The notes under the pieces: generated by a model
What the model was told of the DNA's origin: nothing
The model's input: the letters and a program-made list of their open reading frames with translations, nothing else
The model's database searches: none
Position numbers and translations under genes: made by a program
In this document: one piece after another, positions 8,195 through 57,701 of the stretch
Layout: each line of letters begins with the position of its first letter
Numbering within the stretch: the stretch's first letter is position 1
Assembly: GCA_903877165.1 (NCBI GenBank)
Contig: CAIRCU010000024.1
Span: 4,688 to 68,687 of the forward strand
Length of the DNA stretch: 64,000 bases
Reading direction: 5' to 3'
Origin: Methanobacteriota archaeon
GTDB lineage: Archaea; Thermoplasmatota; E2; DHVEG-1

Positions 8195-8992
8195 ATGCTC
8201 TCCGCGGTGTACCGCTCCTCGTTATACTCGTTCTTCCATCGGAAGATCGAGCAGTTCCGTGACGCCCAGCTGATACACGACATCAAACAAGACCCCTTGC
8301 CCACCCATGTGGCGGTCATCATGGATGGGAACCGGCGGTTCGCCCAGGAGCTCGGTCTGTCGTCTGAAGCAGGCCATATCATGGGAAGCAAGAAGATCGA
8401 AGACATCCTCGACTGGTGCTTCCTCCTCGGCATCCCGGTCTTGACGATTTATGCGTTCTCCACGGAGAACTTCAAGCGCAGCACGGAGGAAGTCGAAACC
8501 CTCATGCGGTTGTTCCGCCAGGAGCTGAACAAGGCGAAGGAGGATTCCCGGATTCATCAGTACCAGGTCCGCATCCGGATCTTCGGGCGGCTTGAATCGC
8601 TCCCTGAGGATCTCCAGGAGGCCGCGCGCTCCATCATGGATATGACGAAGGACTATTCGAAGTACTCGTTCAACATCGCCTTGGCGTATGGAGGCCGTGA
8701 GGAGATCATCAACGCCATCAAGCTCATCGCAAGCGACGTCAAAGACGGGAAACTCGACATCCCGGAGATCTCGCAGGATACTGTCTCCTCTCACCTGTAT
8801 ACCAACGGCATCCCGGACCCGGACCTCATCTTGAGGACCTCGGGGGAGGAGCGGGTGTCGAACTTCCTGCTCTGGCAGCTGGCGTACTCGGAGCTCTATT
8901 TCTCAGACGTGTACTGGCCGGCGCTCCAGAAACGTGATTTCCTCGAAGCAATCAAGACGTATCAGACGAGGAAACGGCGGTTCGGCAGTTGA
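8195..8992 (+). CDS. uppS: Undecaprenyl/dolichyl diphosphate synthase family (cis-prenyltransferase, UppS)
   Basis: HVAVIMDGNRRFA and the FSTENFKR motif typical of UPP synthases. Confidence 0.9.
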   Translation: MLSAVYRSSLYSFFHRKIEQFRDAQLIHDIKQDPLPTHVAVIMDGNRRFAQELGLSSEAGHIMGSKKIEDILDWCFLLGIPVLTIYAFSTENFKRSTEEVETLMRLFRQELNKAKEDSRIHQYQVRIRIFGRLESLPEDLQEAARSIMDMTKDYSKYSFNIALAYGGREEIINAIKLIASDVKDGKLDIPEISQDTVSSHLYTNGIPDPDLILRTSGEERVSNFLLWQLAYSELYFSDVYWPALQKRDFLEAIKTYQTRKRRFGS

Positions 8993-8997
8993 AGTCG

Positions 8998-9309
8998 TTA
9001 CGAATTGCCCTTGGAGGAATCCTCCTCCGTGGAATCATCCCGCAGCGACTCATCGTTCTCAACCTCGGAGGCGATCTCCGCAAGCTTCCCGAACATCCGG
9101 GAGAAAAAATACAGGATCGCGCAGGCGCCGAAACACAGCATCGTCAGCGCCGTCAGGATCCCGGCGAGGTCGCCTTTCGCTGAGAAGATATTGAACGCGT
9201 ACTGCAGCAGCGTCAACACAAGAAGAATGAGTCCGAGGATCAGGAAGAATAGTGAGCTCTTCCGCGTCCGCAGGTCGCTGTAGACCGAAAAGACCTTGCC
9301 GTGGCGCAT
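8998..9309 (-). CDS. Small membrane protein (2 TM) with an acidic C-terminus
   Basis: ATG at 9309 abuts the pfdB stop, implying an operon. Hydrophobic FFLILGLILLVLTLL and LTMLCFGACAILYFF segments. Confidence 0.5.
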   Translation of the reverse strand: MRHGKVFSVYSDLRTRKSSLFFLILGLILLVLTLLQYAFNIFSAKGDLAGILTALTMLCFGACAILYFFSRMFGKLAEIASEVENDESLRDDSTEEDSSKGNS

Positions 9310-9675
9310 TTATCCGCCTTGGCCGGCGAGCTTCAGGCCCTGCTCGACCTTGCTTTGCAGCTCGGTGAGCTTCTCCCGGCTCCGCCCCTCTTGTTTCTCC
9401 AGCGTCGTCTTCCGCAGCTGCAGCGACTCCTTAGTAGTCTCCAGTTCCTTCTTCACATCCGCTTTCCCCTTCGTCTTCACAAGGATCGCGCCGATGCTCT
9501 TGAAAATCGGTGTTTTTTCCCCGGCAGCGTCGACTTCCTTGATAGCTTCGTCTATCTCATGGAGCTGGAGCTCGACTTGCTGCCGCTGCTGTGCAAGCAT
9601 CTGCACCTGAGATCGGGTCTGCTGGAGGCGAGAAATCTGATCCTGCAACTGTGGAGAAAGCTGTTCTTCGGTCAT
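9310..9675 (-). CDS. pfdB: Prefoldin beta subunit
   Basis: Coiled coil - beta hairpin - coiled coil pattern (QLQDQISRLQQ…IFKSIGAILVKTKGKADVKKELE…LEKQ). The track start at 9708 is TTG; the ATG at 9675 is preceded by GAGGA. Confidence 0.75.
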   Translation of the reverse strand: MTEEQLSPQLQDQISRLQQTRSQVQMLAQQRQQVELQLHEIDEAIKEVDAAGEKTPIFKSIGAILVKTKGKADVKKELETTKESLQLRKTTLEKQEGRSREKLTELQSKVEQGLKLAGQGG

Positions 9676-9838
9676 TCTGTTGTCCTCGGTCCGGGGTAAT
9701 GGAGTCAACCGTTATAAAACATTCCCCAAACCACCAAAGCCAACAGAGACAGTGCCAATAATATATAATAGAAAATATTATATAGAAAGATAGGAATATG
9801 TTTTTAAGCAAAAAATTTCATCTCTTGTGGCGATAAAA

Positions 9839-14068: not shown

Positions 14069-15403
14069 CTAATTCATGGTCGGGATATCATAGGGTTTTT
14101 TTGCTGGATGCCAGTCGCAATACACACCAGGAATGTAAATCAGAATAGAATAATACCAAAATGGGATGGCAAAGATGACTGTACGACCCCATAATACCTT
14201 AGGTCCAACCCTTATCCAATCATCATAGTAGTTCTTATCGAAAACTGGGTTTTTTATTGTTTGACGTCGGATGGGAAGGACTTGCACAAAAGTAATAGGT
14301 CGTGAATTATCAATAAAATTGTTGCACGTTATTTTTTCCGTTCCTTTCACCATTTCTGTGTCCAAGCCAACATGGTTATTTCTGAACTCATTGTTGAAAA
14401 TGACATTCGATTTTCCAGGGGAGCGAATCACTATTCCATAACTACAGTTTCTGATTTTATTGCAGGTGATATTGACAAATGATACATTTTCAGAATAGAT
14501 GCCAGAGGAATCATTCTCGAAGATGTTATTAATAACCGTCGAATACGAGCAACCCCAAATAACCAGCCCCCCATCCCCGACACCGTTGTGAATAAAGTTA
14601 CCGTCGATACGAATATGACTTCCCGAGACTTCCATTCCTACTGAATCGGTATTGAAGATTTCATTTCCTGTGACGGTGATATTTTTACATCGAACGATAT
14701 ATATTCCACTTCTTGTGCTCAGATGATTATTGGAAATCACCCAGTCACGCGGTTCCTCCCAAAGGTTGATGTTACACGCATTGTGTGAGATGTTGTTACG
14801 AAGTATGGTGTCGTTTCGGCAGTATCCTCGTCCCCATATCCCACCTTGCATTTTGGAAATAGTGTTTTCAGCGATATAATTATGCGAAGCGTCTTTGAGG
14901 AAGACACCGTACCAATTATTCAAAATGGTATTCCCTACGATATTGTTATAGTCTCCACCAAGAATATCAATTCCGTTGACCGTGTTGTTTGAAATGGTAT
15001 TGCCACTGGACAGAAGTCCTATCCCAGAATAATTCCAAATATTGTGAGAATTTTGGATTGTAAAACCAGTCATGTTTATTTTGTTTGCATTGACCGTGAG
15101 TACATACCTATCCATTTTTCCAATGATAATCGTAGTATCTCTATTTTCACCAATCAAATTGAGTGTTTTATCGATGACTACATTTTCATGATAGGTGCCT
15201 TGGAAAACAAAGATAGTTTCTCCATCACTTGCATTATCAATTGCAGCCTGAATAGTGCTATAGTTCCCTGGTCCTGAACCACCGACATAAAGAGTTTTTC
15301 CATCAGATAAAGGAATGAGGTTGCTCTTGTCAGACTGTGCCAATATTGGAATGCTTGAACCAAAAAACAGCAGGATGACCCCAACTACAAGCAACTTATT
15401 CAT
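14069..15403 (-). CDS. Secreted right-handed parallel beta-helix repeat protein (NosD/PbH1-like), AT-rich gene
   Basis: ATG at 15403 (the track start 15421 is TTG). Signal peptide MNKLLVVGVILLFFGSSIPILA. 'LYVGGSGPGNYSTIQAAIDNASDGETIFVFQGTY' and repeated N-x-I-x-x-N coils. Paralogous to 51196..53253 and 37664..39712. Hydrophobic C-terminal segment. Confidence 0.75.
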   Translation of the reverse strand: MNKLLVVGVILLFFGSSIPILAQSDKSNLIPLSDGKTLYVGGSGPGNYSTIQAAIDNASDGETIFVFQGTYHENVVIDKTLNLIGENRDTTIIIGKMDRYVLTVNANKINMTGFTIQNSHNIWNYSGIGLLSSGNTISNNTVNGIDILGGDYNNIVGNTILNNWYGVFLKDASHNYIAENTISKMQGGIWGRGYCRNDTILRNNISHNACNINLWEEPRDWVISNNHLSTRSGIYIVRCKNITVTGNEIFNTDSVGMEVSGSHIRIDGNFIHNGVGDGGLVIWGCSYSTVINNIFENDSSGIYSENVSFVNITCNKIRNCSYGIVIRSPGKSNVIFNNEFRNNHVGLDTEMVKGTEKITCNNFIDNSRPITFVQVLPIRRQTIKNPVFDKNYYDDWIRVGPKVLWGRTVIFAIPFWYYSILIYIPGVYCDWHPAKKPYDIPTMN

Positions 15404-15549
15404 GGGACTCCCCCCTAACAAGTAATGTTTAAAGAGCCTTTTAAGCCTATTCCTGACCTATATAAGGCGAAGTGAAACCTTCTCTCCATTTCGATAGGTA
15501 AAACGGTTATATTTTTAGCTAGCAAGGGGAGGAGTCGGAACCCCTTCGA

Positions 15550-30015: not shown

Positions 30016-30468
30016 ATGGATTTTATAAGAAAAAATAAATGGTGGATGATTATAGGTTTTTTCGGAACTATACTTTTTAGCTTTGTCAATAATTTAATCT
30101 GGTCGAATGAATCACTTGGTGGTTGGTTTGCATTTATCGGATTTTCTTTTCCAATAATTTTTTCAATAGCAATTCTCTCAGAATTTTTTAACAAATCAAA
30201 CGGAATTATTTCTGCGGGGAAGAAAGCCCTCCTTCTTTCACTCTGGGAATTTATTTTGAACTTACTAATTTTTTGGGTAGGTTACAAAATTATCATACAG
30301 AAAGAGTGGGAAAACGAGATGTTCAAATTCAATTGGGGATTCTTCGTTATGTATCCATTGATGTTCCTGATATTATCTTTTATCCCCATGACTCTTGCAG
30401 GCGGATTTCTTGTTTATGGGATACGGAAAATTCGTGAGGGAAAAAAACAAAAAATTAATCTATTTTAG
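30016..30468 (+). CDS. AT-rich gene encoding a 4-TM membrane protein, hypothetical
   Basis: AAGGAG RBS. Strongly AT-biased codons inside a GC-rich genome. Confidence 0.5.
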   Translation: MDFIRKNKWWMIIGFFGTILFSFVNNLIWSNESLGGWFAFIGFSFPIIFSIAILSEFFNKSNGIISAGKKALLLSLWEFILNLLIFWVGYKIIIQKEWENEMFKFNWGFFVMYPLMFLILSFIPMTLAGGFLVYGIRKIREGKKQKINLF

Positions 30469-35633: not shown

Positions 35634-37028
35634 ATGCGGAGTAAAGAATACAAGTATAGAACAGCATCATTAATGCATATCGGCAGTACTCTTTTTTTTA
35701 CGGCAGTACTCATGATTTCATCTCTTACGTATTCAATTGGGACTTCTGCGTCTGGAACTCGAAATGATCCACCTAACAAACCAAATACTCCAGACCCGGC
35801 GAATGCATCAACGAACGTCTCCATCACTGCACAGCTCAGCTGGATCGGTGGTGATCCAGACCCCGAGGATGTGGTAACGTACGATGTGTATTTCGATACG
35901 GTGTCTCCGCCCGCTCTCATGGTGAATAATCAGTCTGCAACCTCATACGATCCCGGCCTCATGGAGTACCTAACGACGTATTATTGGCAGGTTGTTGCTT
36001 GGGATGGCCAGGGCAATTCTACAGCAGGCGAAGTATGGGAATTTACTACGGTGCCAAATCATCCGCCAAATATGCCAGCCAACCCAGATCCAGCAAATGA
36101 GTCAACAGACGTCTCCATACAGACGAATCTTTCATGGATTGGAGGCGACCCCGATAATGATTCGGTGATCTATGATGTTTATTTTGGGGATACGACCACA
36201 CCTCCGCAAATCGCAAGCAACCTCACCGATACGACCTGTGCGCTTCCAACACTCGCCTACAGCACGACGTACTATTGGCGAATCATCGCCACAGATAATC
36301 ATTCCGCGAACACAACTGGGCCACTATGGATGTTTACTACCGAAATCAGAACCGGGATTTGGATCACCATAACGAAACCGGTGAACAACTCGTTCTATTT
36401 CCAGGATCAGCGACATAACCTCTCTGGCAGGACGATAATATACGGTTCGATAAATATCACAGCCGATGCATCCGCAGACGCAGGAATCGCAAGGGTCGAA
36501 TTTTATATCGATGGGAAACTCAAAGGGAACGATACCACGGCACCATATAGCTGTATTTGGAAACCGCTTCTCCAGTTCAACGGTCTTTCCCTGAGGCATA
36601 CAATCAAGGTGGTCGCTATTGACACGAAAGGGAAGAACGCCTCCGCTGAGATCAACGTCACCAAATGGAGGTTCCACGTGCTTCCCTGGCTCGTCATCGG
36701 AGCCGTTGCGCTTTCATCCATGGTGCCGCATACCAAGATGAAGGGATTTGTCTTTAACCTCCGGGCTAAAGGCACGGGGTATACCTTTTTTGTCCTGCGC
36801 ATGTCCTACCATACCGTCGGCCCGTTAAAGAACGAACGGGGAATCATCAAGATGAAACGCTGCGTCGCCAGCATCCTCGTCGGACCAATGATGATCTTGA
36901 AGCTCGGGCCGGGCCACATGTTCTCCTATGTCTCCATCACATTCCTTGGGGGCGTCCAACTTGCGACACACTCCCTAGGAAACCTATTCGACCGTTCTCC
37001 ACAGCCCCTCCGTAAGAACGGTCGATAA
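35634..37028 (+). CDS. Secreted/anchored protein with two tandem FN3-like repeats, an Ig-like domain and a C-terminal TM segment
   Basis: GGAGGA RBS. N-terminal signal/TM. Two ~99-aa repeats (…PDPANxSTxVSI…LSWIGGDPD…YDVYF…TYYW…). 'VEFYIDGKLKGNDTTAPYSCIWKP' Ig-like domain. Many N-x-S/T sequons. Confidence 0.7.
   Translation: MRSKEYKYRTASLMHIGSTLFFTAVLMISSLTYSIGTSASGTRNDPPNKPNTPDPANASTNVSITAQLSWIGGDPDPEDVVTYDVYFDTVSPPALMVNNQSATSYDPGLMEYLTTYYWQVVAWDGQGNSTAGEVWEFTTVPNHPPNMPANPDPANESTDVSIQTNLSWIGGDPDNDSVIYDVYFGDTTTPPQIASNLTDTTCALPTLAYSTTYYWRIIATDNHSANTTGPLWMFTTEIRTGIWITITKPVNNSFYFQDQRHNLSGRTIIYGSINITADASADAGIARVEFYIDGKLKGNDTTAPYSCIWKPLLQFNGLSLRHTIKVVAIDTKGKNASAEINVTKWRFHVLPWLVIGAVALSSMVPHTKMKGFVFNLRAKGTGYTFFVLRMSYHTVGPLKNERGIIKMKRCVASILVGPMMILKLGPGHMFSYVSITFLGGVQLATHSLGNLFDRSPQPLRKNGR
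35763..36353 (+). repeat. Two tandem ~297-nt intragenic repeats encoding FN3-like modules
   Basis: Protein repeats beginning NDPPNKPNTPDPANAST… and NHPPNMPANPDPANEST…. Confidence 0.6.
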
Positions 37029-46422: not shown

Positions 46423-47079
46423 TTAGAATTCGTCGAGTTTCTTGGTCTTGTATTCTTGGTAGAGGGTTCGTGCGCTCTCCCAGCTGCGGCGGACGTCGGC
46501 GGGGAAGTCACCGTATTTCCGGAGCCACTGTCGGAGGAACTCCATGGTGACAGGGTCGGCTTGGTAGCCGCTGCCCAGCGGGAGCGAAAGTTTCTTTTGG
46601 AGTTCCTGTTCGATGAGTCTGACGTGGTGGTCTCTGGTGACTTTGGCGATGATGGAGGCGGCGCTGACGACGGGGAAGAGGCTGTCACCTTTGTGTTTGG
46701 AGACGATCGTTGGTTTGTAGGTGAGGTTCTTGAGGATGTCTGTGCCGAAGCGCTCTTCGTTGACGTCCGCGGCGTCGACGTAGCAGACGTCGGGGTGGAG
46801 GGTGGCAACGATCTTGCTGAAGGCGTCCGACTCGATTTCGTTGAGGGTCATGACCTTGCGGAGGTCGTCGATGTCCGCGGCCGGGATGACGATGATCTCG
46901 GTGCGTGTGGCGAGCTTGTTGATTTGTACTGCGAGCTGTTCGCGGCGTTTCGGGGTGCATTGTTTGGAGTCGCGTACGCCGATGTCTTTGAGGGGCTCGT
47001 CCGTGGGGATGAGGACGCCGGCGACGACGAGGGGGCCGAGGAGTGGGCCGCGTCCGCTTTCGTCGATGCCGCCGATCAT
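46423..47079 (-). CDS. rnhB: Ribonuclease HII
   Basis: MIGGIDESGRGPLLGPLVVAGV catalytic DE motif. Track start 47139 is TTG; ATG at 47079. Confidence 0.9.
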   Translation of the reverse strand: MIGGIDESGRGPLLGPLVVAGVLIPTDEPLKDIGVRDSKQCTPKRREQLAVQINKLATRTEIIVIPAADIDDLRKVMTLNEIESDAFSKIVATLHPDVCYVDAADVNEERFGTDILKNLTYKPTIVSKHKGDSLFPVVSAASIIAKVTRDHHVRLIEQELQKKLSLPLGSGYQADPVTMEFLRQWLRKYGDFPADVRRSWESARTLYQEYKTKKLDEF

Positions 47080-47175
47080 AGAGTCACGGGGAAGGTAGCT
47101 TGGTGGTGGTAGAAAGAGGTTTGGGGGCGGGGAGGCCAATTTTTTTATGGTACTTCCGTATTAGGGGCGTTGGTT

Positions 47176-47249
47176 GCCGCCGTAGCTTAGCCCGGTTGAG
47201 CGGCTGATTCGTAATCAGCAGGTCAGGGGTCCAAATCCCTTCGGCGGCT
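47176..47249 (+). tRNA. tRNA-Thr (anticodon CGT)
   Basis: 74-nt cloverleaf. Acceptor GCCGCCG/CGGCGGC, anticodon stem GCTGA/TCAGC with loop TTCGTAA, T arm AGGGG-TCCAAAT-CCCTT. No encoded CCA. Confidence 0.85.
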
Positions 47250-47403
47250 TACCAATTTTCTAGCACGGTGAATTATTTAGCGAATCAATTTAACATTTGT
47301 CTTTTCATAAAGACCACTGAAAGAATTACTTGTTGTGTTTCCATAAAGAAAATATAGCTCAAATTGGTTTTCTTCTCTGTGCTATATTGCGGGGTTCAAA
47401 CCA

Positions 47404-48765
47404 ATGGTTGAACTGAAAATTCAGTGTCCCACCTGTAAACATCAGATACTTGTTCGCGGGAAGCCTTCAGAAAAAATCATTATTACCTGCCCACAATGCA
47501 ATACACGCGGTGAATTCACTTTTCCTCTTGATGCTTCCACAGCTCCCGTCCAAAACGAACCGGACACACAGAGACCATTAGGAGTAACCATATTAGCAAT
47601 ACTGGCGATTTTTTATGCATCGACGAATATTTTCAAACTACTATTTTCTGCATCTCTACTGAACTTAGCAAGCCCTTTGAATTCTTTAAATCTGATTCCA
47701 CCCCTTCTACTGCTGCTTGATATTGTAGTGAGTGCAGTGTTCTTCGTTATCGCATACGCATTCTGGAAAGGATTGCAATGGTCTTGGTTTGTCGCAATTA
47801 TTCTCCTCGTTATCGAAATTGTACTCCAGATCAGTGTTCCTTTATCACTTGCTATTTTTTTAAAGACCCCTTTCTCAGGCTTTTTTTATTACCTCCTAAT
47901 AATATACGCCGTTGTTTTCGTAGTGATATTTAGTCTGATTTTATTTTATCTCACAAGACCCCATGTGAAAACGTACTTTCATGTTGGTCATCGCGGTGAT
48001 TTCAAATCAATCATCAGAGCGAAGAGAAAAATCGTGTATGGTCTTGTGATCATCCTCATCATGACAAGTATAATTGTAGTGTTAGGTTTTCAATCAACAG
48101 GTACTATTTCTTTGAAAAGTGTTCAGACGCAAGAAAATCCTCGGGAACCTGGTGACATGACCATTACCGCAGAACTCACTGGGGGTTCACCCTTTGGGAG
48201 AGTCAACGCGTCTCTCTTCTATGCAACATATTTTGGCGAGGGCAGTGAAAGCGGTTCTGAAACCATGCAACCTATGGGGATGAATAGATATTCAGCGATA
48301 CTCCACGGATCAAATGGATCGGAGATCTGGTGCGTAATAGAATCAGGAAATATTGTGTTAGGGGAACGTACTTTTCAGGAGGGGCACGTCGAGAGAAGCA
48401 GCAGAACCTCTCTCGCAATTACCAATATCACACAAACCCCGGAGACACCAACAACACAGACAATGTCCATCACCATCACAGTACATGTCACAAGCAATGC
48501 GACAATCACTGACGTCATGTTCATAAAAGAATTCATCGCTCCTTCCGGCTATAACGGCAGCAGCGATTCAGACATGCAGAAAATAAACAATGACACCTAT
48601 TCTGAGACCATCTATGCGTCTGGCGCTGAAGGATTCGATACAGGTTTCTCAGGTGAAAATCCGCAGGGAACTTTTGTCTCCGGCACGACAATATATTACC
48701 GAATTGCTGCTAAAGATGCATCAGGGAATACCGCGGTACAAACCAAACACATCACCATAAAATAA
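47404..48765 (+). CDS. AT-rich gene: N-terminal C4 zinc ribbon + 4-5 TM + large C-terminal extracytoplasmic domain, hypothetical
   Basis: MVELKIQCPTCKHQILV…IIITCPQCNTRGEFTFP, then hydrophobic helices. C-terminal Thr/Ser-rich beta-rich region with sequons. Confidence 0.55.
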   Translation: MVELKIQCPTCKHQILVRGKPSEKIIITCPQCNTRGEFTFPLDASTAPVQNEPDTQRPLGVTILAILAIFYASTNIFKLLFSASLLNLASPLNSLNLIPPLLLLLDIVVSAVFFVIAYAFWKGLQWSWFVAIILLVIEIVLQISVPLSLAIFLKTPFSGFFYYLLIIYAVVFVVIFSLILFYLTRPHVKTYFHVGHRGDFKSIIRAKRKIVYGLVIILIMTSIIVVLGFQSTGTISLKSVQTQENPREPGDMTITAELTGGSPFGRVNASLFYATYFGEGSESGSETMQPMGMNRYSAILHGSNGSEIWCVIESGNIVLGERTFQEGHVERSSRTSLAITNITQTPETPTTQTMSITITVHVTSNATITDVMFIKEFIAPSGYNGSSDSDMQKINNDTYSETIYASGAEGFDTGFSGENPQGTFVSGTTIYYRIAAKDASGNTAVQTKHITIK

Positions 48766-48930
48766 GATGCCTTTTTTAGCAAGCCCCTCGGCGACACTCA
48801 TTTCATGGAACTCTTCCCCTGTGTCTTGACACGACGCGAGAACGATTCCATCGTTGGATTTATGATTCCACATCAAATAATATGATTTTTTACAAGGCAC
48901 ATTGTTTCAGGAGAAAACAGGTCTGTTTTC

Positions 48931-50733
48931 ATGAAAAACTATATAGCCGACGCCCTCCATATTCCACTGGGGGATTCCATGAAGACCAGTAGAGCCTCGC
49001 GCGTGCTCGTCTGTTACGTCCTATTACTCTTGATCGCAACCAGTCTGTATGCCAACATCGGGGCGCAAAGCCCACTTGGGGGCGGCAAACCCGCGGGCCC
49101 CTTCCCCAGCGGCATGCTCTTGTTTGCTCCAGTCTCAGGGTCAACCACGTATCTCATGGATAGCAACGGCACGATTAATCACACCTGGCCCTGCACGTAC
49201 ACGCCGCAGCTCGCCCCGTACTGGATAGGGAACGGCTCCATCGTCTATCCAATCAATAATGGCGGCGGCCTGGAAAAAATCGCATGGAACGGAACCGTGA
49301 CTTGGGTATACCAATTCAACCGACCGGGAAGCTACTGTCACCACGATATCGTACCGCTCCCCAACGGCGACGTCCTGATGATCGTCCAGGAAGTGAAGAC
49401 ACACGCTGAGGCAGTCGCCGCGGGACGCAACCCCGCGACCGTCGGCGACACGTTCCTCCCAGACTACCTCATCGAAGTCAAACCAACGGGACCGACGAGC
49501 GGGACGATCGTCTGGGAATGGCACCAATGGGATCATCTCATCCAGGACTATGACTCCTCGAAGCAGAACTACGGTGTCGTCGGAGACCACCCCGAGTTAA
49601 TCGACATCAATTTCGGCGAATACTTCACCGGCGATTGGATCCATACGAATTCCGTGGACTACAACCCCGCGTTTGACCAAATCCTGATCAGCGCCCATGA
49701 CTTCGACGAAGTCTGGATCATCGACCACAGCACCACCACCCAAGAGGCAGCGGGCCACACCGGTGGCCGGTACGGCCATGGTGGCGACCTTTTGTACCGC
49801 TGGGGGAACCCGAAGGCCTACCGCCGCGGGGATGCAAGTGATGAGAAAATGTACTTCGAGCACCAGTGCACGTGGATCAAACCCGGGCTTCCCGGTGCTG
49901 GCGACATCCTTATCTACGACAACGGCAACAACCGTCCCGGAGGCCCCTATTCGACGGTGGATGAGTTTACACCAACGGTGTCCGCGGATGGTTACTATTA
50001 CATCAACCCGGGTGAAGCATACGGTCCTGATAATTTCACATGGAGCTATGTCGCCACTCCCCCGCAGAGCATGTACTCGAGCATCTACAGCGGCGCGCAA
50101 CGCCTCCTGGACGGGAACACGATGATCTGCGTCGGGGTCCCTGGGCAGTTCATCGAAGTCTCACCAGACGATCAGGTCGTATGGCAGTATACGAACCCGT
50201 TCCCTGACTCCGGCGATAACTCCGTATTCAAAGTCGAGTATATCCCCCCGACACCGCCAGAAAAACCGAATCTCGATGCCATTGGTAGACTGGTATGGAC
50301 GGACGTCAAACCTGGGGCCGTCGTCAACGGGAGCTTTCAGGTGGTGAACATTGGGGATTCCAATTCCAGATTGAATTGGAAGGTAGACAAGATCTCTCTC
50401 GGTTGGGGGAACTGGACGATTGCGCCTGAGTCCGGCGTGAACCTCACTCCCGAGGAGGGGCCGGTGACGGTTCACGTGCAGGGATTCATTCCCGACAAAA
50501 CGAATAAAGCGTTCCAAGGAAGCCTTCTGGTTTTGAACCAGGACAACACATCGGATAACGATACGGTCCCGGTGATCATACAGACCTCCTTGAGTACACC
50601 GTTTTCACCTGCGCATCCCTTCTTTGATCTTCTGAGGTATTGGCTTTCTTATATGAAGAATTATGTGTGGAGGCATGAGTACGGATCGCTTCCTTGTTTC
50701 CACACGAGAGTGGCCGGTGGGACGATTGGTTAG
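48931..50733 (+). CDS. Secreted beta-propeller protein, arylsulfotransferase (ASST; PF05935/PF14269)-like; GC-rich copy
   Basis: Signal peptide. Conserved core TIVWEWHQWDHLIQD…GDWIHTNSVDYNPAFDQILISAH…WIIDHSTTT. Paralog of 53320..55050. Confidence 0.55.
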   Translation: MKNYIADALHIPLGDSMKTSRASRVLVCYVLLLLIATSLYANIGAQSPLGGGKPAGPFPSGMLLFAPVSGSTTYLMDSNGTINHTWPCTYTPQLAPYWIGNGSIVYPINNGGGLEKIAWNGTVTWVYQFNRPGSYCHHDIVPLPNGDVLMIVQEVKTHAEAVAAGRNPATVGDTFLPDYLIEVKPTGPTSGTIVWEWHQWDHLIQDYDSSKQNYGVVGDHPELIDINFGEYFTGDWIHTNSVDYNPAFDQILISAHDFDEVWIIDHSTTTQEAAGHTGGRYGHGGDLLYRWGNPKAYRRGDASDEKMYFEHQCTWIKPGLPGAGDILIYDNGNNRPGGPYSTVDEFTPTVSADGYYYINPGEAYGPDNFTWSYVATPPQSMYSSIYSGAQRLLDGNTMICVGVPGQFIEVSPDDQVVWQYTNPFPDSGDNSVFKVEYIPPTPPEKPNLDAIGRLVWTDVKPGAVVNGSFQVVNIGDSNSRLNWKVDKISLGWGNWTIAPESGVNLTPEEGPVTVHVQGFIPDKTNKAFQGSLLVLNQDNTSDNDTVPVIIQTSLSTPFSPAHPFFDLLRYWLSYMKNYVWRHEYGSLPCFHTRVAGGTIG

Positions 50734-50734
50734 A

Positions 50735-50940
50735 AGCCATCTGGGAATAACGTCCTGGATGAGTTGACGTAACTGCCGCCTCGTCTCGACCGTCAGGGGG
50801 AACTCCTGGTGGCCTGGGCAGGTGTCGTCAAGGATCGCTTCGCCGGTGGTTTTATTGTAGACGACGGGGTAGAGGATGCATCCCTGGAGCCGATGCTCGT
50901 AGATGGAACATTGGCTGGCGTTTCTATCAAGTTTATCAAT
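50735..50940 (-). pseudogene. Decayed 3' fragment of a CxxCxxCC (YkgJ-like) gene; homologous to the intact gene at 55063..55428
   Basis: The minus-strand translation '…LDRNASQCSIYEHRLQGCILYPVVYNKTTGEAILDDTCPGHQ' aligns to '…CSIYDHRPQGCTLYPVIFNKTTGEANLDDACPRH'. No start codon. Frame broken near the 3' end. About 80% nucleotide similarity to the region after ASST2. Confidence 0.5.
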
Positions 50941-51195
50941 ATTATCGAAACATACAAAAAAGAAGTACCTGATACAGGATCGTTAGAAAGGAAAGGATTG
51001 GAACGACTGAAGGAAAGAGATAAGAGAACTGTAGCGAAGCGGAAGAAGCGGAAATAATGCGCCGGGATTGAAAATTACGCATTCTGGCGCATTATCCCCG
51101 GTTCTACGGAGTCCTTTCTGCGCCATCATGGGCCTTTTTACGGGTATGTTTTTATAGGGAGAGATAGTTAAAAAATTGTCGTAGCGGAGAAACTC

Positions 51196-53253
51196 ATGGA
51201 TTCAGGTCTGCTGATGAGAAAGTGTTCTGCTGTCGGAATCATCCTCTTGTTCCTAGGAATGTGCGTCATTCCAGCAGCTGCACAGGACATTGAGAAATCA
51301 TCGTTTCCGGCATCACGAGGGAATTGGTTGTATGTCGGTGGTTCAGGCCCAGGGAACTATACGAAGATTCAGGATGCGATTGACAACGCAAGTGACGGGG
51401 ATACGGTGTACGTGTATAGCGGAACGTATGCTGGATCTGTCGTCATTACAAAATCAATTAACCTCATTGGTGAGGATAAGAATACAACGGTCATCAGTGG
51501 ATATTTTGCCTACACGGTGTACATACTGTCTGATTGGGTCAATTTGAGTGGGTTTACCATTTATACGAACGGGCGTCTCGGTGAGGGTATTCGAATAGAT
51601 TCATGCCACAACACCTTTGTAGGCAACATCATCGACGCCCCCCGTGATAGAATTCGGGTTGCTGGTGACAGCAACATCGTCTCCGGGAACACCATCAGAA
51701 ACTGCTATCTCTTTCTTGTTGGTGATGGCAACACTATCTCAGGAAACGTCATCTCAAACACCTATTATGGCATATACTTAACAGATTATGCTTCTAACAA
51801 CATTATTTCAAATAATTCTCTTTTCGACTCAGGTCTATTTATCGCCGATGCTGCTGTTTGGCATAACACCGTTACGAACAACACGGTGAATGGCAAACCG
51901 CTTGTCTATCTTGCTGATGAATCCGACTTGGTACTCGATGGTGATGCAGGGCAAATACTTCTTGTGAATTGCACCAATATCACTGTACAACACCAAGAAA
52001 TATCCAACACTACTGTCGGTATCCAACTTTGGGGATCCACTTCCTGCGTCATCTCCGGAAACACTATCGCTGGGAATCATTTTGGCATGTACCTCTGCGG
52101 TTCGAACAACACCATAATTGACAACACCATCACCCATAACTATAACGGCATCTTTCTTACAGGGGACAACAATACCATCTCTGGTAACACCTTCACAAAC
52201 AACGATGACGGCATATACCTCTCATATAGCGATCACAACGGCATCATCAATAACACTATCACAAACAACTATTATGGCATGCTGCTGAACGACGGTGGCG
52301 ATGTCAATACTCTTACTAATAACATCATAACAAACAACTATTACGGTATTTTTCTTTCAGCCAACAGCAACATCATCTCCGGTAACACTATCTCGAACAA
52401 CGATGACGGCATCTACCTGTCGTATAGCGATCGCAACACTATGATTAGGAACACCATTACAGACAACTCTTATGGCATACTGCTGAATTATAGTAGCGAT
52501 TTCAGTAGTATTATCAATAACACTCTTTCAAACAACAGCCATGCTGTCATAGGTCTTTCTGGCAACAGGAACACTATGATCTCTGGTAACACCATCTCGA
52601 ACAACGGCGATGGGGTATACCTCTCGTTTAGCGATCACAACGGCATCTTCAATAACACCATCACAAACAACGACGACAATGGCGTGCGTCTGTTTGGCGA
52701 CAGCAACATCATCTCTGGCAACACCCTCACACACAACAATGGTAGTGGCATCTACATAGATGACAGCGATTACAACACCATTATCAGTAACACCATTTCA
52801 AACAACAGCGATGACGGCATACGTCTTTTCGGTGACGACAATGCGGTCTCTACCAACATCATCACAAATAACAGCAACGGCATATACGTCTTGAGCCACA
52901 AGAACAACACAATCTCAGGTAATACTATTGCTTGGAACAATTGGTCTGGTGTATACCTGAGTGGTTCCAGGGGCAATACCATTTCTGGGAACTGCATCTC
53001 AACAAATAGACAAGGCATCTTTTTCGTTTTATCAACCAACAATACCGTCCTTAAGAACAACTTTCTGGGAAACAAACGGCATGCTCTTTTTGAAAACTGC
53101 ACAAACCTTTGGAACAGGAATTATTGGGGTAGACCACGGATACTTCCCAAACTCGTTTTTGGTATAAGAATGGTACAGAATAAATGGCCGTTGCCACTAA
53201 TCGATATCGACCGGCATCCCTCATTTCTACCTTATAACATCCCCCAGGACTGA
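51196..53253 (+). CDS. Secreted parallel beta-helix repeat protein (NosD/PbH1-like) with ~22-aa coils; AT-rich gene
   Basis: Signal peptide. 'WLYVGGSGPGNYTKIQDAIDNASDGDTVYVYSGTY' N-terminal module is paralogous to 14069..15403. More than 20 'ISGNTI(S/T)NN…GIYL' coils. Confidence 0.75.
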   Translation: MDSGLLMRKCSAVGIILLFLGMCVIPAAAQDIEKSSFPASRGNWLYVGGSGPGNYTKIQDAIDNASDGDTVYVYSGTYAGSVVITKSINLIGEDKNTTVISGYFAYTVYILSDWVNLSGFTIYTNGRLGEGIRIDSCHNTFVGNIIDAPRDRIRVAGDSNIVSGNTIRNCYLFLVGDGNTISGNVISNTYYGIYLTDYASNNIISNNSLFDSGLFIADAAVWHNTVTNNTVNGKPLVYLADESDLVLDGDAGQILLVNCTNITVQHQEISNTTVGIQLWGSTSCVISGNTIAGNHFGMYLCGSNNTIIDNTITHNYNGIFLTGDNNTISGNTFTNNDDGIYLSYSDHNGIINNTITNNYYGMLLNDGGDVNTLTNNIITNNYYGIFLSANSNIISGNTISNNDDGIYLSYSDRNTMIRNTITDNSYGILLNYSSDFSSIINNTLSNNSHAVIGLSGNRNTMISGNTISNNGDGVYLSFSDHNGIFNNTITNNDDNGVRLFGDSNIISGNTLTHNNGSGIYIDDSDYNTIISNTISNNSDDGIRLFGDDNAVSTNIITNNSNGIYVLSHKNNTISGNTIAWNNWSGVYLSGSRGNTISGNCISTNRQGIFFVLSTNNTVLKNNFLGNKRHALFENCTNLWNRNYWGRPRILPKLVFGIRMVQNKWPLPLIDIDRHPSFLPYNIPQD
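52180..52671 (+). repeat. Three ~90-nt near-identical segments spaced ~200 nt apart inside the beta-helix gene
   Basis: 52180-52269, 52378-52467 and 52582-52671 each encode (I)SGNT(F/I)(T/S)NNDDGIYLSYSD(H/R)N…. Confidence 0.6.
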
Positions 53254-53319
53254 GAAAAAAAGGTTATCTGATGAGATAACTATTTAACCAATAAAATTTA
53301 TTATTATACAGGGGCCTTT

Positions 53320-55050
53320 ATGGAGAAAGACGGAAAATGTCGGATCTTCGTTTTTTGTTTCATACTCGTACTTGTTGGACCTTGTCTGTCCTCGGTACTT
53401 GAAGCGAAGAACATGCCTCTCGATATGAAAACATCGGGAAGATTTCCAGATGGCCAGATTTTGTTTACTCCGTTTTATTCAACAACAACCTATTTAATCA
53501 ATGGCACGGGCGCGGTAAATCATACGTGGTCAAGTGCGTATGCACCCAGGTACGCTTCGTATTGGTTAGGGAACGGTACCATTCTCCTTCCAATCGATAC
53601 GGGCTCCGGTGGTTTCCAAGAAATTGCATGGAATGGAACGGTGATCTGGGACTACCGATTTTCTCGATCTGGATGCTGCTGCCATCATGATGTGAAGCCG
53701 TTACCAAATGGAAATGTGTTGATGATCGTTCAGGAAATAAAAACACCCGCTCAAGCGATTGCCGCGGGACGCGACCCAGCAACCATCGAGAACTCATTTT
53801 TCCCAGATTTCCTCATCGAAGTCCACCAAACAGGTCCGTCCAGTGGTACAATCGTCTGGGAATGGCACCAATGGGATCATCTCATCCAGGATTTCGATTC
53901 AACAAAAAACAACTATGGTGTCGTCGGAGATCACCCGGAATTAATTGACATCAATTTCGGTGAATATTTTTATGGAGACTGGATTCACACGAATTCAGTG
54001 GATTACAACCCAGCGTTTGACCAAATACTCATCAGCGCCCATAATTTCGACGAAGTCTGGATCATCGATCACAGCACAACCACTGAGGAGGCCGCTGGCC
54101 ACACCGGTGGGCACTATGGGCACGGCGGCGATCTGCTGTACCGCTGGGGAAACCCACAGGCCTACCAACGCGGAAACGCAAGTGATAAAAAATTGTTCTT
54201 CCAACACCAATGCATCTGGATAAAACCCAGGTATCCTGGTGAAGGAGACATACTTATTTTCGACAACGGCAACAACCGTCCTGGTGGACCCTATTCGACA
54301 GCCGATGAATTTACACCGCCAGTGGACTCCAACGGATCGTATTATCTCGAACCGGGTTCAGTATATGGTCCTGAGAACTATACTTGGAGTTATACGGCGG
54401 TTCCACCGGGGAGTCTGTATTCAGACATTTTCGGTGGTGTACAGCGCCTTCCGGACGGGGATACGCTAATTTGCGATGGAGTCCCCGGAAAATTTATTGA
54501 AGTGACGCCGGAGAAAACAGTCGTCTGGGAGTATGTCAATCCATATCCTTGGCCAACCATGAGTCCGGTGTTTAAAATTGAATACATCTGCCCTATGCCA
54601 CCTTTGCCACCGCCAAAGCCTGATTTATATTGCATAGGGCGTCTCGTATGGGTGGGCATTCAGCCAGGGGTAAACGTCACGGGGAGCTTTCAGGTGCAGA
54701 ACTTCGGAGATCCTGGCTCACGATTGAACTGGACGGTGAATTTGTCCTCCCTGATGTGGGGGAAATGGACGATTACTCCCTCGTCCGGCGTAGACCTCAC
54801 CCCCGAGGAGGGGCCCGTAAGCGTGCAGGTGAATGTGATTGCGCCTGGCGAGAAAAACGCGGAGTTCCATGGGGCCCTCATGGTACAGAACAAGGAGAAT
54901 GCGTCGGATTTCGGTACAATCCCAATAACTCTGACAACCCCGTTGATCAACTCTCTTCCACCAGCTCACCCCTTCATGAATATGGTGCGGCAGTGGCTTT
55001 CATTTTTGAAAGATGTGTTGAAAAGAGCCGTTGCTTTAGTGGAACATTGA
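53320..55050 (+). CDS. Secreted beta-propeller protein, ASST-like; AT-rich paralog
   Basis: Signal peptide MEKDGKCRIFVFCFILVLVGPCLSS. Core nearly identical to the 48931 gene over about 150 aa; termini divergent. Confidence 0.55.
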   Translation: MEKDGKCRIFVFCFILVLVGPCLSSVLEAKNMPLDMKTSGRFPDGQILFTPFYSTTTYLINGTGAVNHTWSSAYAPRYASYWLGNGTILLPIDTGSGGFQEIAWNGTVIWDYRFSRSGCCCHHDVKPLPNGNVLMIVQEIKTPAQAIAAGRDPATIENSFFPDFLIEVHQTGPSSGTIVWEWHQWDHLIQDFDSTKNNYGVVGDHPELIDINFGEYFYGDWIHTNSVDYNPAFDQILISAHNFDEVWIIDHSTTTEEAAGHTGGHYGHGGDLLYRWGNPQAYQRGNASDKKLFFQHQCIWIKPRYPGEGDILIFDNGNNRPGGPYSTADEFTPPVDSNGSYYLEPGSVYGPENYTWSYTAVPPGSLYSDIFGGVQRLPDGDTLICDGVPGKFIEVTPEKTVVWEYVNPYPWPTMSPVFKIEYICPMPPLPPPKPDLYCIGRLVWVGIQPGVNVTGSFQVQNFGDPGSRLNWTVNLSSLMWGKWTITPSSGVDLTPEEGPVSVQVNVIAPGEKNAEFHGALMVQNKENASDFGTIPITLTTPLINSLPPAHPFMNMVRQWLSFLKDVLKRAVALVEH

Positions 55051-55062
55051 GGAGTAGGCAGG

Positions 55063-55428
55063 TTAGAGGCCATCTGGAAATAAGGTCTGGATGAGTCTGC
55101 GCAGCTGTCGTCTCGTCTCCAGTGTCAGCGGGAAGTCCCGATGACGTGGGCAGGCGTCGTCGAGATTCGCTTCGCCGGTGGTTTTGTTGAAGATGACGGG
55201 ATAGAGGGTGCAGCCTTGGGGTCGGTGATCATAGATGGAGCACTGACCAGCTTTGAGGAAGACGCAGTGCCCGTTCGTGTTCTTTAATTGTTGGCCAAGT
55301 GATCCTTGCTTCGTAAAGGATGTCTTGGGGAGTCCGAGCGTTTCGATGCGGGCGATGTCTGCCAATGTAAGCAGCATGTTGGTCTGCTGGCAGCAGGCGG
55401 TGCAACGGATGGCCCGGCATGAGTTCAT
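55063..55428 (-). CDS. YkgJ/UPF0153-like putative Zn/Fe-chelating protein (CxxCxxCC family)
   Basis: N-terminal CRAIRCTACC plus further Cys (HCVFLKAGQCSIY…GC…DDACPRH). 121 aa. Confidence 0.65.
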   Translation of the reverse strand: MNSCRAIRCTACCQQTNMLLTLADIARIETLGLPKTSFTKQGSLGQQLKNTNGHCVFLKAGQCSIYDHRPQGCTLYPVIFNKTTGEANLDDACPRHRDFPLTLETRRQLRRLIQTLFPDGL

Positions 55429-55754
55429 GGTTAGCGGGTATCACGGGAGGTGTTATTAAAGACACGGTTATAATCACGATTCAGCAAGAGTTTTGGTATT
55501 GGCGTAAAATGAGGACCGAAATTTATAAAAAGGGAACGGGCGTTGTGAAATGTAGGCCCTCATTGGCGGGAAAATTTCTCATAATATAAACGTTATTCAA
55601 AAACATTATAAAGGGCATTTGAATTGCCTGTTACAATACAAAAATAACATTAAAAAAAGAAAAAACAGGTGTGATTTATTTCCCCGGTCCGGCACCGGAT
55701 GTTTCCACCCCCGGCAAGGAAAGGAGAATAAATCACCAGGGGGCATCGAATACT

Positions 55755-56288
55755 ATGGCCAAAAGTAGCAAAAAACAAATAGATCAAGACGAAAAGAAGG
55801 TCATCGAACAACTCCAGCGCAACTCCAACGAAAGCATCGATAAAATAGCGAAACAGTGCGGATTCTCGCGGCAGAAGGTCTGGAGAATCATAAAACGGCT
55901 GGAAAGCAACAAAACGATCTGGGGATACACCGCGGTCCCGGACAAGGAAAAGCAAGGCGTCCGCCACTACTTCCTCCTCATCAGACGGTCCAACGAACCG
56001 ATTAGCGGCTCCATCGACGAACTCATCAGCGGCTTCAAGAAAGGCTCGGCGAAGACCCTCGGGATCTACGTCAGAACCGCCTGCATCCTCCACGGACAGT
56101 ACGACGTCCTCCTCTGCTTCACCGCCAAAGACATCTCCGTCGCCAAGAAATTCATCGAGTTCATCAACAAGCGGTACTCTGTCGTCATCAAAGACACCCT
56201 GCTGCTCGAGGACATCTTCTCCATCAAGATCTGCGGGATGCTCAACCCCAAGCTCGACGACCTCAAAGAGTTCTACGCCTCAATCTAA
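55755..56288 (+). CDS. Lrp/AsnC family transcriptional regulator
   Basis: N-terminal HTH (IDKIAKQCGFSRQKVWRIIKRLE) and C-terminal RAM domain. ATG at 55755. Confidence 0.85.
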   Translation: MAKSSKKQIDQDEKKVIEQLQRNSNESIDKIAKQCGFSRQKVWRIIKRLESNKTIWGYTAVPDKEKQGVRHYFLLIRRSNEPISGSIDELISGFKKGSAKTLGIYVRTACILHGQYDVLLCFTAKDISVAKKFIEFINKRYSVVIKDTLLLEDIFSIKICGMLNPKLDDLKEFYASI

Positions 56289-56590: not shown

Positions 56591-57142
56591 TTAATGGTGA
56601 ATCAGCCCAAGCGACGTCAATTCCTGCGATAACTTCTCCACGGCAAGCGACACATCCGCGATCTTTCGCGCGCCGGTGCAGACGATCTTCCCGGAGCCAA
56701 ACAGCAGCATCGCCACTTTCGGTTCCTTAATGCGGTACACTAGACCAGGGAACTGCTCGGGCTCATACTCCACGTTCTCCAGCCCCAGCGCCATCGCGAC
56801 CTCGTTGAGATTCAACTCACCGCCCAAATCCGAGATCGCCACGATGTTCTGGATCACAATCTCCGGGTTCTTGTAGACATCGACGTTGAGTTTCTTCAAC
56901 TTCTCCGCAATGATATTGATCGTGGTCCGAACGTCCTCGATGTTCTTCGCCCCGGTACAGTTCGCTTTGCCGCTGCGGAACAGCAGGGTCGCGGTCTTCG
57001 GGTTACTCAACCGGTAGACAAGCCCAGGGAACTGCTCAGGCTCATACTCGGCTTCTTCCAGCGACTGGGCGATCACGTCCAAATCCAACTTATCTGAAAA
57101 CGACGTCGATGCCACGATGTTTTCAACGATTACTTCCGGCAT
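56591..57142 (-). CDS. tbp: TATA-box binding protein
   Basis: Two canonical repeats (ENIVAS…EYEPEQFPGLVYR…LLF(R/G)SGK…CTGA(K/R)) and an acidic tail. Confidence 0.95.
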   Translation of the reverse strand: MPEVIVENIVASTSFSDKLDLDVIAQSLEEAEYEPEQFPGLVYRLSNPKTATLLFRSGKANCTGAKNIEDVRTTINIIAEKLKKLNVDVYKNPEIVIQNIVAISDLGGELNLNEVAMALGLENVEYEPEQFPGLVYRIKEPKVAMLLFGSGKIVCTGARKIADVSLAVEKLSQELTSLGLIHH

Positions 57143-57164: not shown

Positions 57165-57701
57165 TTACGTTTTCATTCCTGATGCAAGACGCGATGAAAG
57201 CACAGTCAACGCGTCCGTGACAGCCTCAACCGATGGTCCGTCAGCGACCATCTTCCCCGAATCAAACAGGAGTATAACTGTATTTGGGTCTTCGGTCTTC
57301 ACCATCAACCCTGGGAAGTCCGGCTGCTCCGCCGGCACAACCTGCAGAGTCTTCCGCAGCTCATCCAGCGGCAGCGGCATCCCCAAATGAAGTGAAGCTA
57401 CCGCATGCTCAACGGTCAGCATCGCTCGTTTGTTCTTCGAAACCCCAAGCAGGGACAGCCGCTGATCCATCAGCGAGACCACTTCTTCCGCCTCGGAAAG
57501 CGACGTGACCCCAGTAACCTTCATCTCGCCAGAGTCAAACAGGAACACCGCAGCGCGAGGCTGGGGAACCTGTACCATCAGCACCGGGGTCTCCTCCGGT
57601 TTATATGTCGCATGGGTAAGCGCGGAAGCGAGAGTAGCGAGATCAAGATGCTGCGCAATAGGGCAGGAAATAACAATGTTTTCCACCTGGACCTCGGGCA
57701 T
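57165..57701 (-). CDS. Divergent TBP paralog (TBP-like), 22 nt upstream of tbp
   Basis: Same two-repeat architecture (MPEVQVENIVIS…LFDSGEMKVTG / …PDFPGLMV…LLFDSGKMVADG). First-repeat 'EQFPGL' is replaced by 'EETPVL'. Confidence 0.7.
   Translation of the reverse strand: MPEVQVENIVISCPIAQHLDLATLASALTHATYKPEETPVLMVQVPQPRAAVFLFDSGEMKVTGVTSLSEAEEVVSLMDQRLSLLGVSKNKRAMLTVEHAVASLHLGMPLPLDELRKTLQVVPAEQPDFPGLMVKTEDPNTVILLFDSGKMVADGPSVEAVTDALTVLSSRLASGMKT

Follow-up and report, generated by a model that had tools for sequence, protein, structure and literature searches.

We analyzed a 64,000-nt stretch of DNA (contig CAIRCU010000024.1 of assembly GCA_903877165.1, positions 4,688 to 68,687; hereafter, the window), which is archaeal by its genes for TBP, translin, and Lrp and whose best protein matches are found in metagenome-assembled genomes (MAGs) of Thermoplasmatota. 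The region of interest lies between a tRNA-Thr gene and ykgJ2, a gene of the YkgJ/CxxCxxCC family, and contains two genes for secreted ASST-like beta-propellers (prop1 and prop2), each followed on the opposite strand by ykgJ sequence. The interval 47250-55062 is a flexible genomic island that carries only genes for secreted or surface-type proteins, and the two propeller genes were probably joined in it by recombination, for which we propose two events. The features are as follows (window coordinates, with strand in parentheses; GC3, GC content at third codon positions; loci of relatives are designated by L numbers and proteins by P numbers).

46423..47139 (-): RNase HII (PF01351), a core gene to the left of the island, with 65-86% amino acid identity to relatives and syntenic in L002, L005, L007, and L094
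47176..47249 (+): tRNA-Thr (CGU), identified with ARAGORN; left border of the island, with the same tRNA at the same border in L002, L005, L007, and L094
47404..48765 (+): island gene for a 453-aa protein with an N-terminal zinc ribbon, transmembrane helices, and an extracellular C-terminal part; GC3 0.41
48931..50733 (+): prop1, gene for an ASST-like beta-propeller that is secreted and also includes an Ig-like domain and a C-terminal helix; translation probably starts at M17 (48979)
50730..50922 (-): 3' fragment of ykgJ, codons ~59-121; pseudogene and probable recombination scar
50923..51195: spacer X, upstream of the NosD-like gene, with a strong hairpin at 51044-51105
51196..53253 (+): "NosD-like" parallel beta-helix repeat gene (PF13229, PF05048), secreted product, mosaic; GC3 0.54
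51600..55350 (approximate limits): mosaic (exchanged) block relative to L008, comprising the distal two thirds of the NosD-like gene, prop2, and the 3' ~4/5 of ykgJ2
53320..55050 (+): prop2, second secreted ASST-like propeller (PF05935, PF14269), not sister to prop1
55063..55428 (-): ykgJ2, intact 121-aa CxxCxxCC-family gene (PF03692); core gene and right border of the island
55671..56288 (+): Lrp/AsnC-type regulator, a core gene to the right of the island, followed by two TBP genes; syntenic in all relatives

The genes that flank this island form a shared backbone, which is kept together with the island slot in L002/L003/L004, L005/L006, L007, and L094. Its left part comprises genes for eRF1, beta-CASP, NfeD, Band_7, enolase, 2-hydroxyacid dehydrogenase, translin, TBP, TBP, Lrp, and ykgJ; after the variable stretch, it continues with tRNA-Thr(CGU), RNase HII, an NSUN methyltransferase, Exo_endo_phos, and peptidase M32. 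At the tRNA side, the similarity of the window to L002, L005, L007, and L094 ends at 47249-47253. At the other side, the ykgJ orthologs (68-79% identity) occupy the same slot beside Lrp-TBP-TBP. By this synteny, ykgJ is a core gene at one border of a variable island and tRNA-Thr is the other border. The same site has different gene content across six haplotypes, with secreted or surface-type products in all of them:

Window, from ykgJ to tRNA-Thr: prop2, NosD-like gene, ykgJ fragment, prop1, 453-aa gene
L008: 453-aa gene, prop1, fragment, NosD-like gene; also genes for an 857-aa Ig-like protein and an M28 peptidase past an att-like 15-nt tRNA repeat
L094: ASST, NosD-like gene, and a 194-aa gene
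L002 / L003 / L004: as L094, plus an FG-GAP gene
L007: 172-aa CARDB-like gene and 399-aa PKD gene
L005 / L006: one 173-aa gene

The FG-GAP gene (L002 14381-16195) is whole in L002 and missing from L094, though the DNA of these two loci is 96.8% identical. The L008 repeat is a 15-nt copy of the tRNA-Thr 3' end (ATCCCTTCGGCGGCT) at 8322-8337, adjoining a segment (8403-12258) that encodes the 857-aa Ig-like protein and the M28 peptidase and is absent from the window. Integration at a tRNA gene typically leaves a copy of the tRNA 3' end beside extra genes, and the copy in L008 resembles an att scar from one more insertion at this tRNA-Thr gene. Pfam searches of the four proteins encoded in the island of the window detected no integrase domain.

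The closest relative, L008, allows the history of the island to be resolved within genes. Its core genes (Lrp and TBP) are 92-100% identical to those of the window at the nucleotide level. It is colinear with window positions 47234-51100 at 90-98% nucleotide identity, which covers the 453-aa gene (90-99% per 100-nt bin), prop1 (94% amino acid identity to P0127 of L008), the ykgJ fragment, and spacer X (92-96% up to ~51100). The fragment copies of the window and L008 occupy the same place and are truncated at the same point, but their indels differ; this would be expected if the pseudogene is older than the split of the two lineages. Beyond ~51600, within the NosD-like gene, the nucleotide identity to L008 is ~52-70%; at the protein level, the identity is 78% over the N-terminal 151 aa, 59% in the middle, and 42% in the C-terminal half. 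L008 does not have prop2, and its NosD-like gene directly adjoins ykgJ. Within ykgJ2, the first 60 nt are 97% identical to L008, nt 90-150 are ~55% identical, and the 3' 192 nt are 86.5% identical (53-93% per 30-nt bin past the first 60 nt, and 74-88% at the level of the gene); from ~55400 onward, the identity is again at the level of the core genes. This identity profile and the absence of prop2 in L008 indicate that ~51600-55350 is an exchanged allele with crossovers in the NosD-like gene and inside ykgJ. Since the window allele is AT-shifted and the L008 genes have a host-like GC3 (0.62-0.71 for the NosD-like gene and 0.81 for ykgJ), import into the lineage of the window is favored.

The intact border gene ykgJ2 matches PF03692 with 49.8 bits (cut-off 23). 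It resembles the YkgJ/CxxCxxCC family (PF03692, UPF0153) in the small size and cytoplasmic location of its product, in the N-terminal Cys cluster, and in more conserved Cys residues, and differs from it in the motif, which is C-x4-C-x2-CC; its relevance here is positional, as a border gene. C4, C9, C12, and C13 are invariant in the six ykgJ orthologs, and ykgJ2 and the orthologs P0121-P0126 share this spacing instead of the name-giving CxxCxxCC, together with four more invariant Cys. A strict C..C..CC regular expression misses ykgJ2, and our scans for ykgJ used a looser expression and a hidden Markov model (HMM) built from the six orthologs. The literature on ykgJ concerns E. coli loci and is not relevant to this one.

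The ykgJ fragment is closest to the ykgJ of L008 (81.8% nucleotide identity) and to ykgJ2 (78.6%), followed by those of L007 (72%), L005 (71%), and L002 (67%). It is without the N-terminal Cys cluster and without an in-frame start, has a 1-nt insertion ~8 codons ahead of the old stop, and overlaps at that old stop with the stop codon of prop1 (50731-50733). The preliminary description of this stretch, made from the sequence by itself, had called it startless and frame-broken, which is correct for a segment (50730-50922) narrower than the one given then (50735-50940), and had predicted its alignment with ykgJ2. That description had also read it as one ykgJ copy in decay, which the substitutions do not bear out. 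Relative to both functional genes, the substitutions common to the two fragment copies number 3, 4, and 13 at codon positions 1, 2, and 3, and the ratio of nonsynonymous to synonymous divergence (dN/dS) between the fragment and functional ykgJ is 0.11-0.18. This prevalence of third-position changes and the low dN/dS imply that most of the divergence accumulated in a separate lineage, before the gene ceased to function. A small number of changes affect residues that are invariant elsewhere (P to L, R to G, and G to S), as would be expected after truncation. The fragment thus seems to be a formerly functional, diverged allele that was truncated at a recombination joint rather than a decayed gene. 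Its end at 50922 abuts the unrelated spacer X, which is consistent with an illegitimate junction in a resident gene; no donor sequence that would define this joint was found.

Both propellers are well above the Pfam cut-off for PF05935 (ASST; 74.4 bits for prop1 and 69.5 bits for prop2, cut-off 24.2). They are 62% identical across 569 aa, and 74 of the 80 residues in alignment columns 201-280 (~92%) are the same, so the near identity of their cores, as described before, is real for this part. A single colinear blastn high-scoring segment pair (HSP) links 49142-50913 to 53483-55245 (70.6% identity over 1794 columns, E=0) and crosses both propeller/ykgJ junctions uninterrupted; the similarity is therefore not confined to the propeller genes but includes the ykgJ sequence that follows each of them. 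Together with the Pfam matches, this HSP establishes the earlier observation of two propeller genes that are each followed by ykgJ on the opposite strand. The two propeller genes are probably not recent copies of each other. Their synonymous divergence is saturated (dS ~1.9), and in a distance-based (neighbor-joining) tree of ASST proteins, prop1 and its L008 ortholog cluster with P0011, the ykgJ-adjacent ASST of L002 (bootstrap 79). prop2 branches apart from prop1 and is nearest to proteins of non-syntenic loci. Its closest relatives, P0012 (68%) and P0003 (65%), and also P0013, come from other loci, and no PF03692 gene was found in the neighborhoods of these three.

An AlphaFold2 model of prop2 (predicted local distance difference test score 79) has a signal/transmembrane helix, a propeller at residues 46-423, an Ig-like sandwich at 436-539, and a helix at 551-575. 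Fold searches of the model against the PDB with Foldseek gave 9kf6 and 9kf4 as top matches, both of the Streptomyces sulfotransferase Cpz4 (E 4e-15, TM-score 0.46/0.57); PDB sequence searches with prop2 and with the family profile matched no solved structure, and neither the propellers nor ykgJ received a name from NCBIfam. prop1 and prop2 have an ASST-type (3'-phosphoadenosine 5'-phosphosulfate-independent sulfotransferase-like) six-bladed propeller with an Ig-like domain and a C-terminal amphipathic helix, and are putative enzymes. The window propellers resemble known ASST enzymes (E. coli AssT and Streptomyces Cpz4) in the Pfam scores, in a propeller with Cpz4 as its best PDB match, in the signal peptide, and in a His-rich invariant core. 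Unlike these enzymes, they add the Ig-like domain and the C-terminal helix, and they have no sequence-level match to a solved ASST. The ASST-like family is large (>7900 matches below E 1e-10), its propeller part reaches many bacterial phyla, and its alignment contains many invariant His residues. The island products are most likely extracellular. A scan of viral contigs for ASST relatives found none and thus gave no sign of a viral vector, and a literature search on ASST in Thermoplasmata returned nothing.

Two observations concern the architecture of this family. The Ig-plus-helix tail of prop2 (aa 435-567, window 54622-55020) and the C-terminus of the otherwise unrelated FG-GAP protein of L002 (14482-16110) share 44% identity. 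The common module, which combines an Ig-like domain with a P-x-H-P motif and a Leu-rich amphipathic helix, may serve as a lineage-specific surface-attachment or sorting module. Also, P0002 (986 aa, JGI) is an ASST homolog of about twice the usual length that outscores closer relatives despite 52-54% identity, which suggests a duplicated or fused architecture.

Base composition separates the genes of the island. Most window genes have a GC3 of 0.70-0.84 (core genes ~0.76), and the values for the island and its border are 0.70 for prop1, 0.54 for the NosD-like gene, 0.52 for prop2, 0.68 for ykgJ2, and 0.41 for the 453-aa gene. The atypical composition expected of an island thus applies to the 453-aa gene, the NosD-like gene, and prop2, but not to prop1. 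The description of the NosD-like gene and prop2 as strongly AT-rich holds for the former, while the shift of prop2 is mild. Similarly, prop1 is GC-rich as had been stated, but not all of its surroundings are, as its upstream neighbor (47404-48765) is AT-rich. Three other window genes have a low GC3, namely, 14069-15421 (0.41), 30016-30468 (0.34), and 35634-37028 (0.55); two of these are of secreted type (NosD/beta-helix and Big_7 Ig-like) and the third is without a family.

These comparisons show the synteny, the variability of the island, the mosaic boundaries, and how old the fragment is relative to L008; from them, we infer the exact mechanism, the order of events, and the recipient lineage as follows. 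prop1 and prop2 would be diverged versions of the terminal gene of the island that were united by recombination and not by a recent tandem duplication, with prop1 as the resident terminal gene. In the first event, before the split from L008, incoming DNA with spacer X, the NosD-like gene, and a ykgJ allele would have entered the resident ykgJ through an illegitimate joint near codon 59. Its other end would have recombined with homologous DNA of the flank, in the manner of homology-facilitated illegitimate recombination (HFIR), so that the resident prop1 and the 3' 193 nt of the old ykgJ were left as a scar. In the second event, after the split, one lineage, more probably that of the window, would have exchanged the stretch from the proximal third of the NosD-like gene to nt ~60-90 of ykgJ. 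This second exchange would have been homologous and would have either brought in or removed prop2; in the former case, prop2 would have arrived as part of an allele of lower GC.

A tandem duplication in situ of a segment with spacer X, the NosD-like gene, the ASST gene, and the 3' part of ykgJ, with one segment end inside ykgJ, would make prop1 and prop2 true paralogs; later, the upstream NosD-like gene would have disappeared or given way to the 453-aa gene, and the downstream ASST would have been deleted in L008. Several patterns agree with such a history. The colinear HSP spans the ASST gene and the 3' part of ykgJ in both modules, the order NosD-ASST-ykgJ is also present in L002 and L094, the fragment is nearer to the ykgJ genes of its own clade (81.8% and 78.6%) than to those of the outgroups (67-72%), and a possible ASST relic exists in the L008 spacer (see below). 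Furthermore, the third-position and four-fold-site divergence between the fragment and ykgJ2 (0.39-0.42) is not significantly lower than that between prop1 and prop2 (0.51-0.53), given 23 four-fold sites. Nevertheless, we consider this duplication unlikely. prop1 groups with P0011 and the nearest relatives of prop2 are in other loci, the GC3 values of the two genes differ (0.70 vs. 0.52), and the mostly third-position changes on the stem of the fragment would not be expected in a copy that had never been functional. It also requires more steps, namely, the duplication, the loss of the NosD-like gene, the deletion in L008, and an allele replacement. The preliminary description had instead proposed that a single acquisition of a foreign block with the NosD-like gene and prop2 at ykgJ produced the fragment, and that a propeller and ykgJ form a functional two-gene unit, in which a secreted propeller would have a metal-binding partner in the cytoplasm. 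The AT-shift of the block, its different history, and the crossover inside ykgJ2 agree with recombination of foreign DNA at ykgJ, and the ASST gene is convergent on ykgJ sequence at prop1/fragment, at prop2/ykgJ2, and in L002/L094. However, the fragment did not come from that event, because L008 has the same fragment with the same truncation point while lacking prop2 and carrying a host-like rather than an AT-rich NosD allele, provided that the L008 contig is correct. With the evidence on the propeller-ykgJ pairing given below, this combined proposal is very improbable. An even smaller chance is assigned to an assembly or binning artifact, in which the contig would be a chimera of two strains' versions of the locus. 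Two diverged versions of a gene pair adjoin here with a compositional step between them, as a strain chimera could give. However, an identical prop1 and the same gene order (600-aa, 685-aa, and 576-aa genes, then Lrp, TBP, and TBP) are found in three independent ENA assemblies, which argues that the arrangement is not chimeric; L008 independently has prop1-fragment-X-NosD; and the copies are just ~70% identical in DNA, too diverged for repeat-induced misjoins.

Several points weigh against the scenario of two recombination events. The survey is small, with only six close ykgJ orthologs found and six haplotypes compared, and a metagenome scan for further ykgJ haplotypes returned two loci only, one of them already known. 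No donor haplotype (453-prop1-full ykgJ, or NosD'-prop2-ykgJ') was found among these, and we infer the order and direction of the events. The island of the window has no att-like copy of the tRNA 3' end, such that the tRNA as an integration site is seen in L008 only. The codon-position test on the fragment comprises 20 substitutions. The bootstrap support for prop1 with P0011 is just 79%, and all ASST distances are alike (62-66% identity). The L008 genes are split, and the contig probably has frameshift or indel errors. Finally, the spacer between the NosD-like gene and ykgJ in L008 (2259-2372) contains a 29-nt imperfect match to the DNA of the ASST core (VWEWHQWDH), with a score of 29 compared to a shuffle maximum of 25-28. 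This match may be the relic of a deleted ASST gene, in which case L008 lost an ASST gene rather than the window gaining one.

Regarding a functional link between the propeller and ykgJ, the gene content of relatives argues for a positional explanation. ykgJ orthologs (73-74% identity) hold the same slot in L005, L006, and L007, where the island is without an ASST gene. Conversely, scans with the HMM and for the Cys motif covered 80 ASST loci with flanks of up to 10 kb, taken from genomes of GTDB species in Thermoplasmatota, Planctomycetota, Bacteroidota, and other groups, and detected a ykgJ-like ORF in none of them. The propeller and ykgJ genes are convergent and therefore do not share a transcript; the propellers are secreted, whereas the ykgJ product has no signal peptide. 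The adjacency is thus, on these genomic data, positional and not a functional pair: ykgJ lies behind a propeller because it is the fixed border of the island and is convergent with whichever gene is last. The neighborhood survey thereby refutes the functional unit by a criterion that the preliminary description itself had set, namely, the lack of ASST-ykgJ co-occurrence elsewhere. The pairing of a NosD-like gene with ASST was also considered as a general conserved pair and was rejected, as a NosD-like ORF lies within 1.5 kb in one of the 80 loci; within the clade, a NosD-like gene beside ASST recurs in the window, L002, and L090.

The product of the NosD-like gene has 11 TIGR03804 repeats and scores 146.8 bits against the NosD subfamily TIGR04247, below the cut-off of 300. 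By these scores, it is a generic parallel beta-helix repeat protein and not a true NosD. The spacer X hairpin (51044-51105), located ~90 nt upstream of this gene, has 25-nt arms and a folding energy of -35.5 kcal/mol (z -3.6). It is kept in L008 and was found in the window and L008 only; with no further copies, the possibility that it is a repeated element was rejected. For the 453-aa protein, NCBIfam gives a weak match to a CxxC zinc ribbon, and Pfam gives none.

Some observations concern gene calling and the flank. In the ENA assemblies, an 82-aa ORF without a Pfam family is called at 50809-51057 (+), antisense to the ykgJ fragment; it is probably spurious. ENA gene calling also gives a 48-aa ORF in place of ykgJ2. 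The tandem TBP pair (56591-57142 and 57165-57701) is kept in all relatives, and across the same genomes, one copy is 97-100% conserved at the amino acid level and the other only 67-74%.

These findings represent a clear and datable case in which an island has turned over in an uncultured archaeal lineage: it includes a scar gene, mosaic segments that begin or end within genes, and cassettes that were gained or lost between near-identical genomes. They also show that a pairing repeated in one genome can be a by-product of recombination at the border of an island rather than functional coupling. Furthermore, they point to a large uncharacterized family of secreted ASST-like propellers in Thermoplasmatota, with a C-terminal module shared with other secreted proteins. 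The kind of genome plasticity involved is ordinary, and current concepts are unchanged.

The junction at the fragment can be compared with HFIR, which leaves displaced "orphan" genes and partial copies of the anchor, as in the effector-immunity arrays of the V. cholerae type VI secretion system and in orphan arrays of Rhs and contact-dependent inhibition (CDI) systems (PMC5361080). The proposed first event is similar in that the incoming allele would be anchored on the conserved side and illegitimate on the other, with the older version kept aside and a partial copy of the anchor gene marking the joint. It differs in that the window has no toxin-immunity logic and the retained prop1 is intact and apparently still functional. 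Also, HFIR was shown experimentally in bacteria and not in these archaea, where it is deduced from structure alone.

The island as a whole corresponds to the tRNA-linked additive and replacement flexible genomic islands described for Alteromonas and other free-living prokaryotes (PMC4898812). Differences are the Thermoplasmatota host, the cargo of secreted propeller, beta-helix, FG-GAP, and Ig-like proteins instead of glycosyltransferase clusters, the lack of a visible integrase, and a second border formed by a small Cys-cluster gene that was itself cut and exchanged. In common with these islands, the same chromosomal position is used in relatives with a tRNA at one border, and the content differs fully from lineage to lineage, with whole cassettes distinguishing even near-identical genomes (L002/L094). 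A partial tRNA repeat (in L008), surface or secreted products, and raised recombination in flanking core genes are further shared features. Tentatively, and with more doubt than confidence, the tRNA-Thr/ykgJ interval could be viewed as an archaeal counterpart of bacterial "replacement" surface islands, i.e., a hotspot where secreted propeller, beta-helix, and FG-GAP proteins are swapped or stacked. As parts of this same reading, these proteins may share the lineage-specific C-terminal module (Ig-like domain and amphipathic helix) for attachment to the cell surface, and old alleles may be kept beside new ones through one-sided illegitimate recombination. If so, strains would gain differing surface identities, e.g., against viruses. 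With respect to these known systems, the locus is a fresh example of an already known form of genome plasticity.

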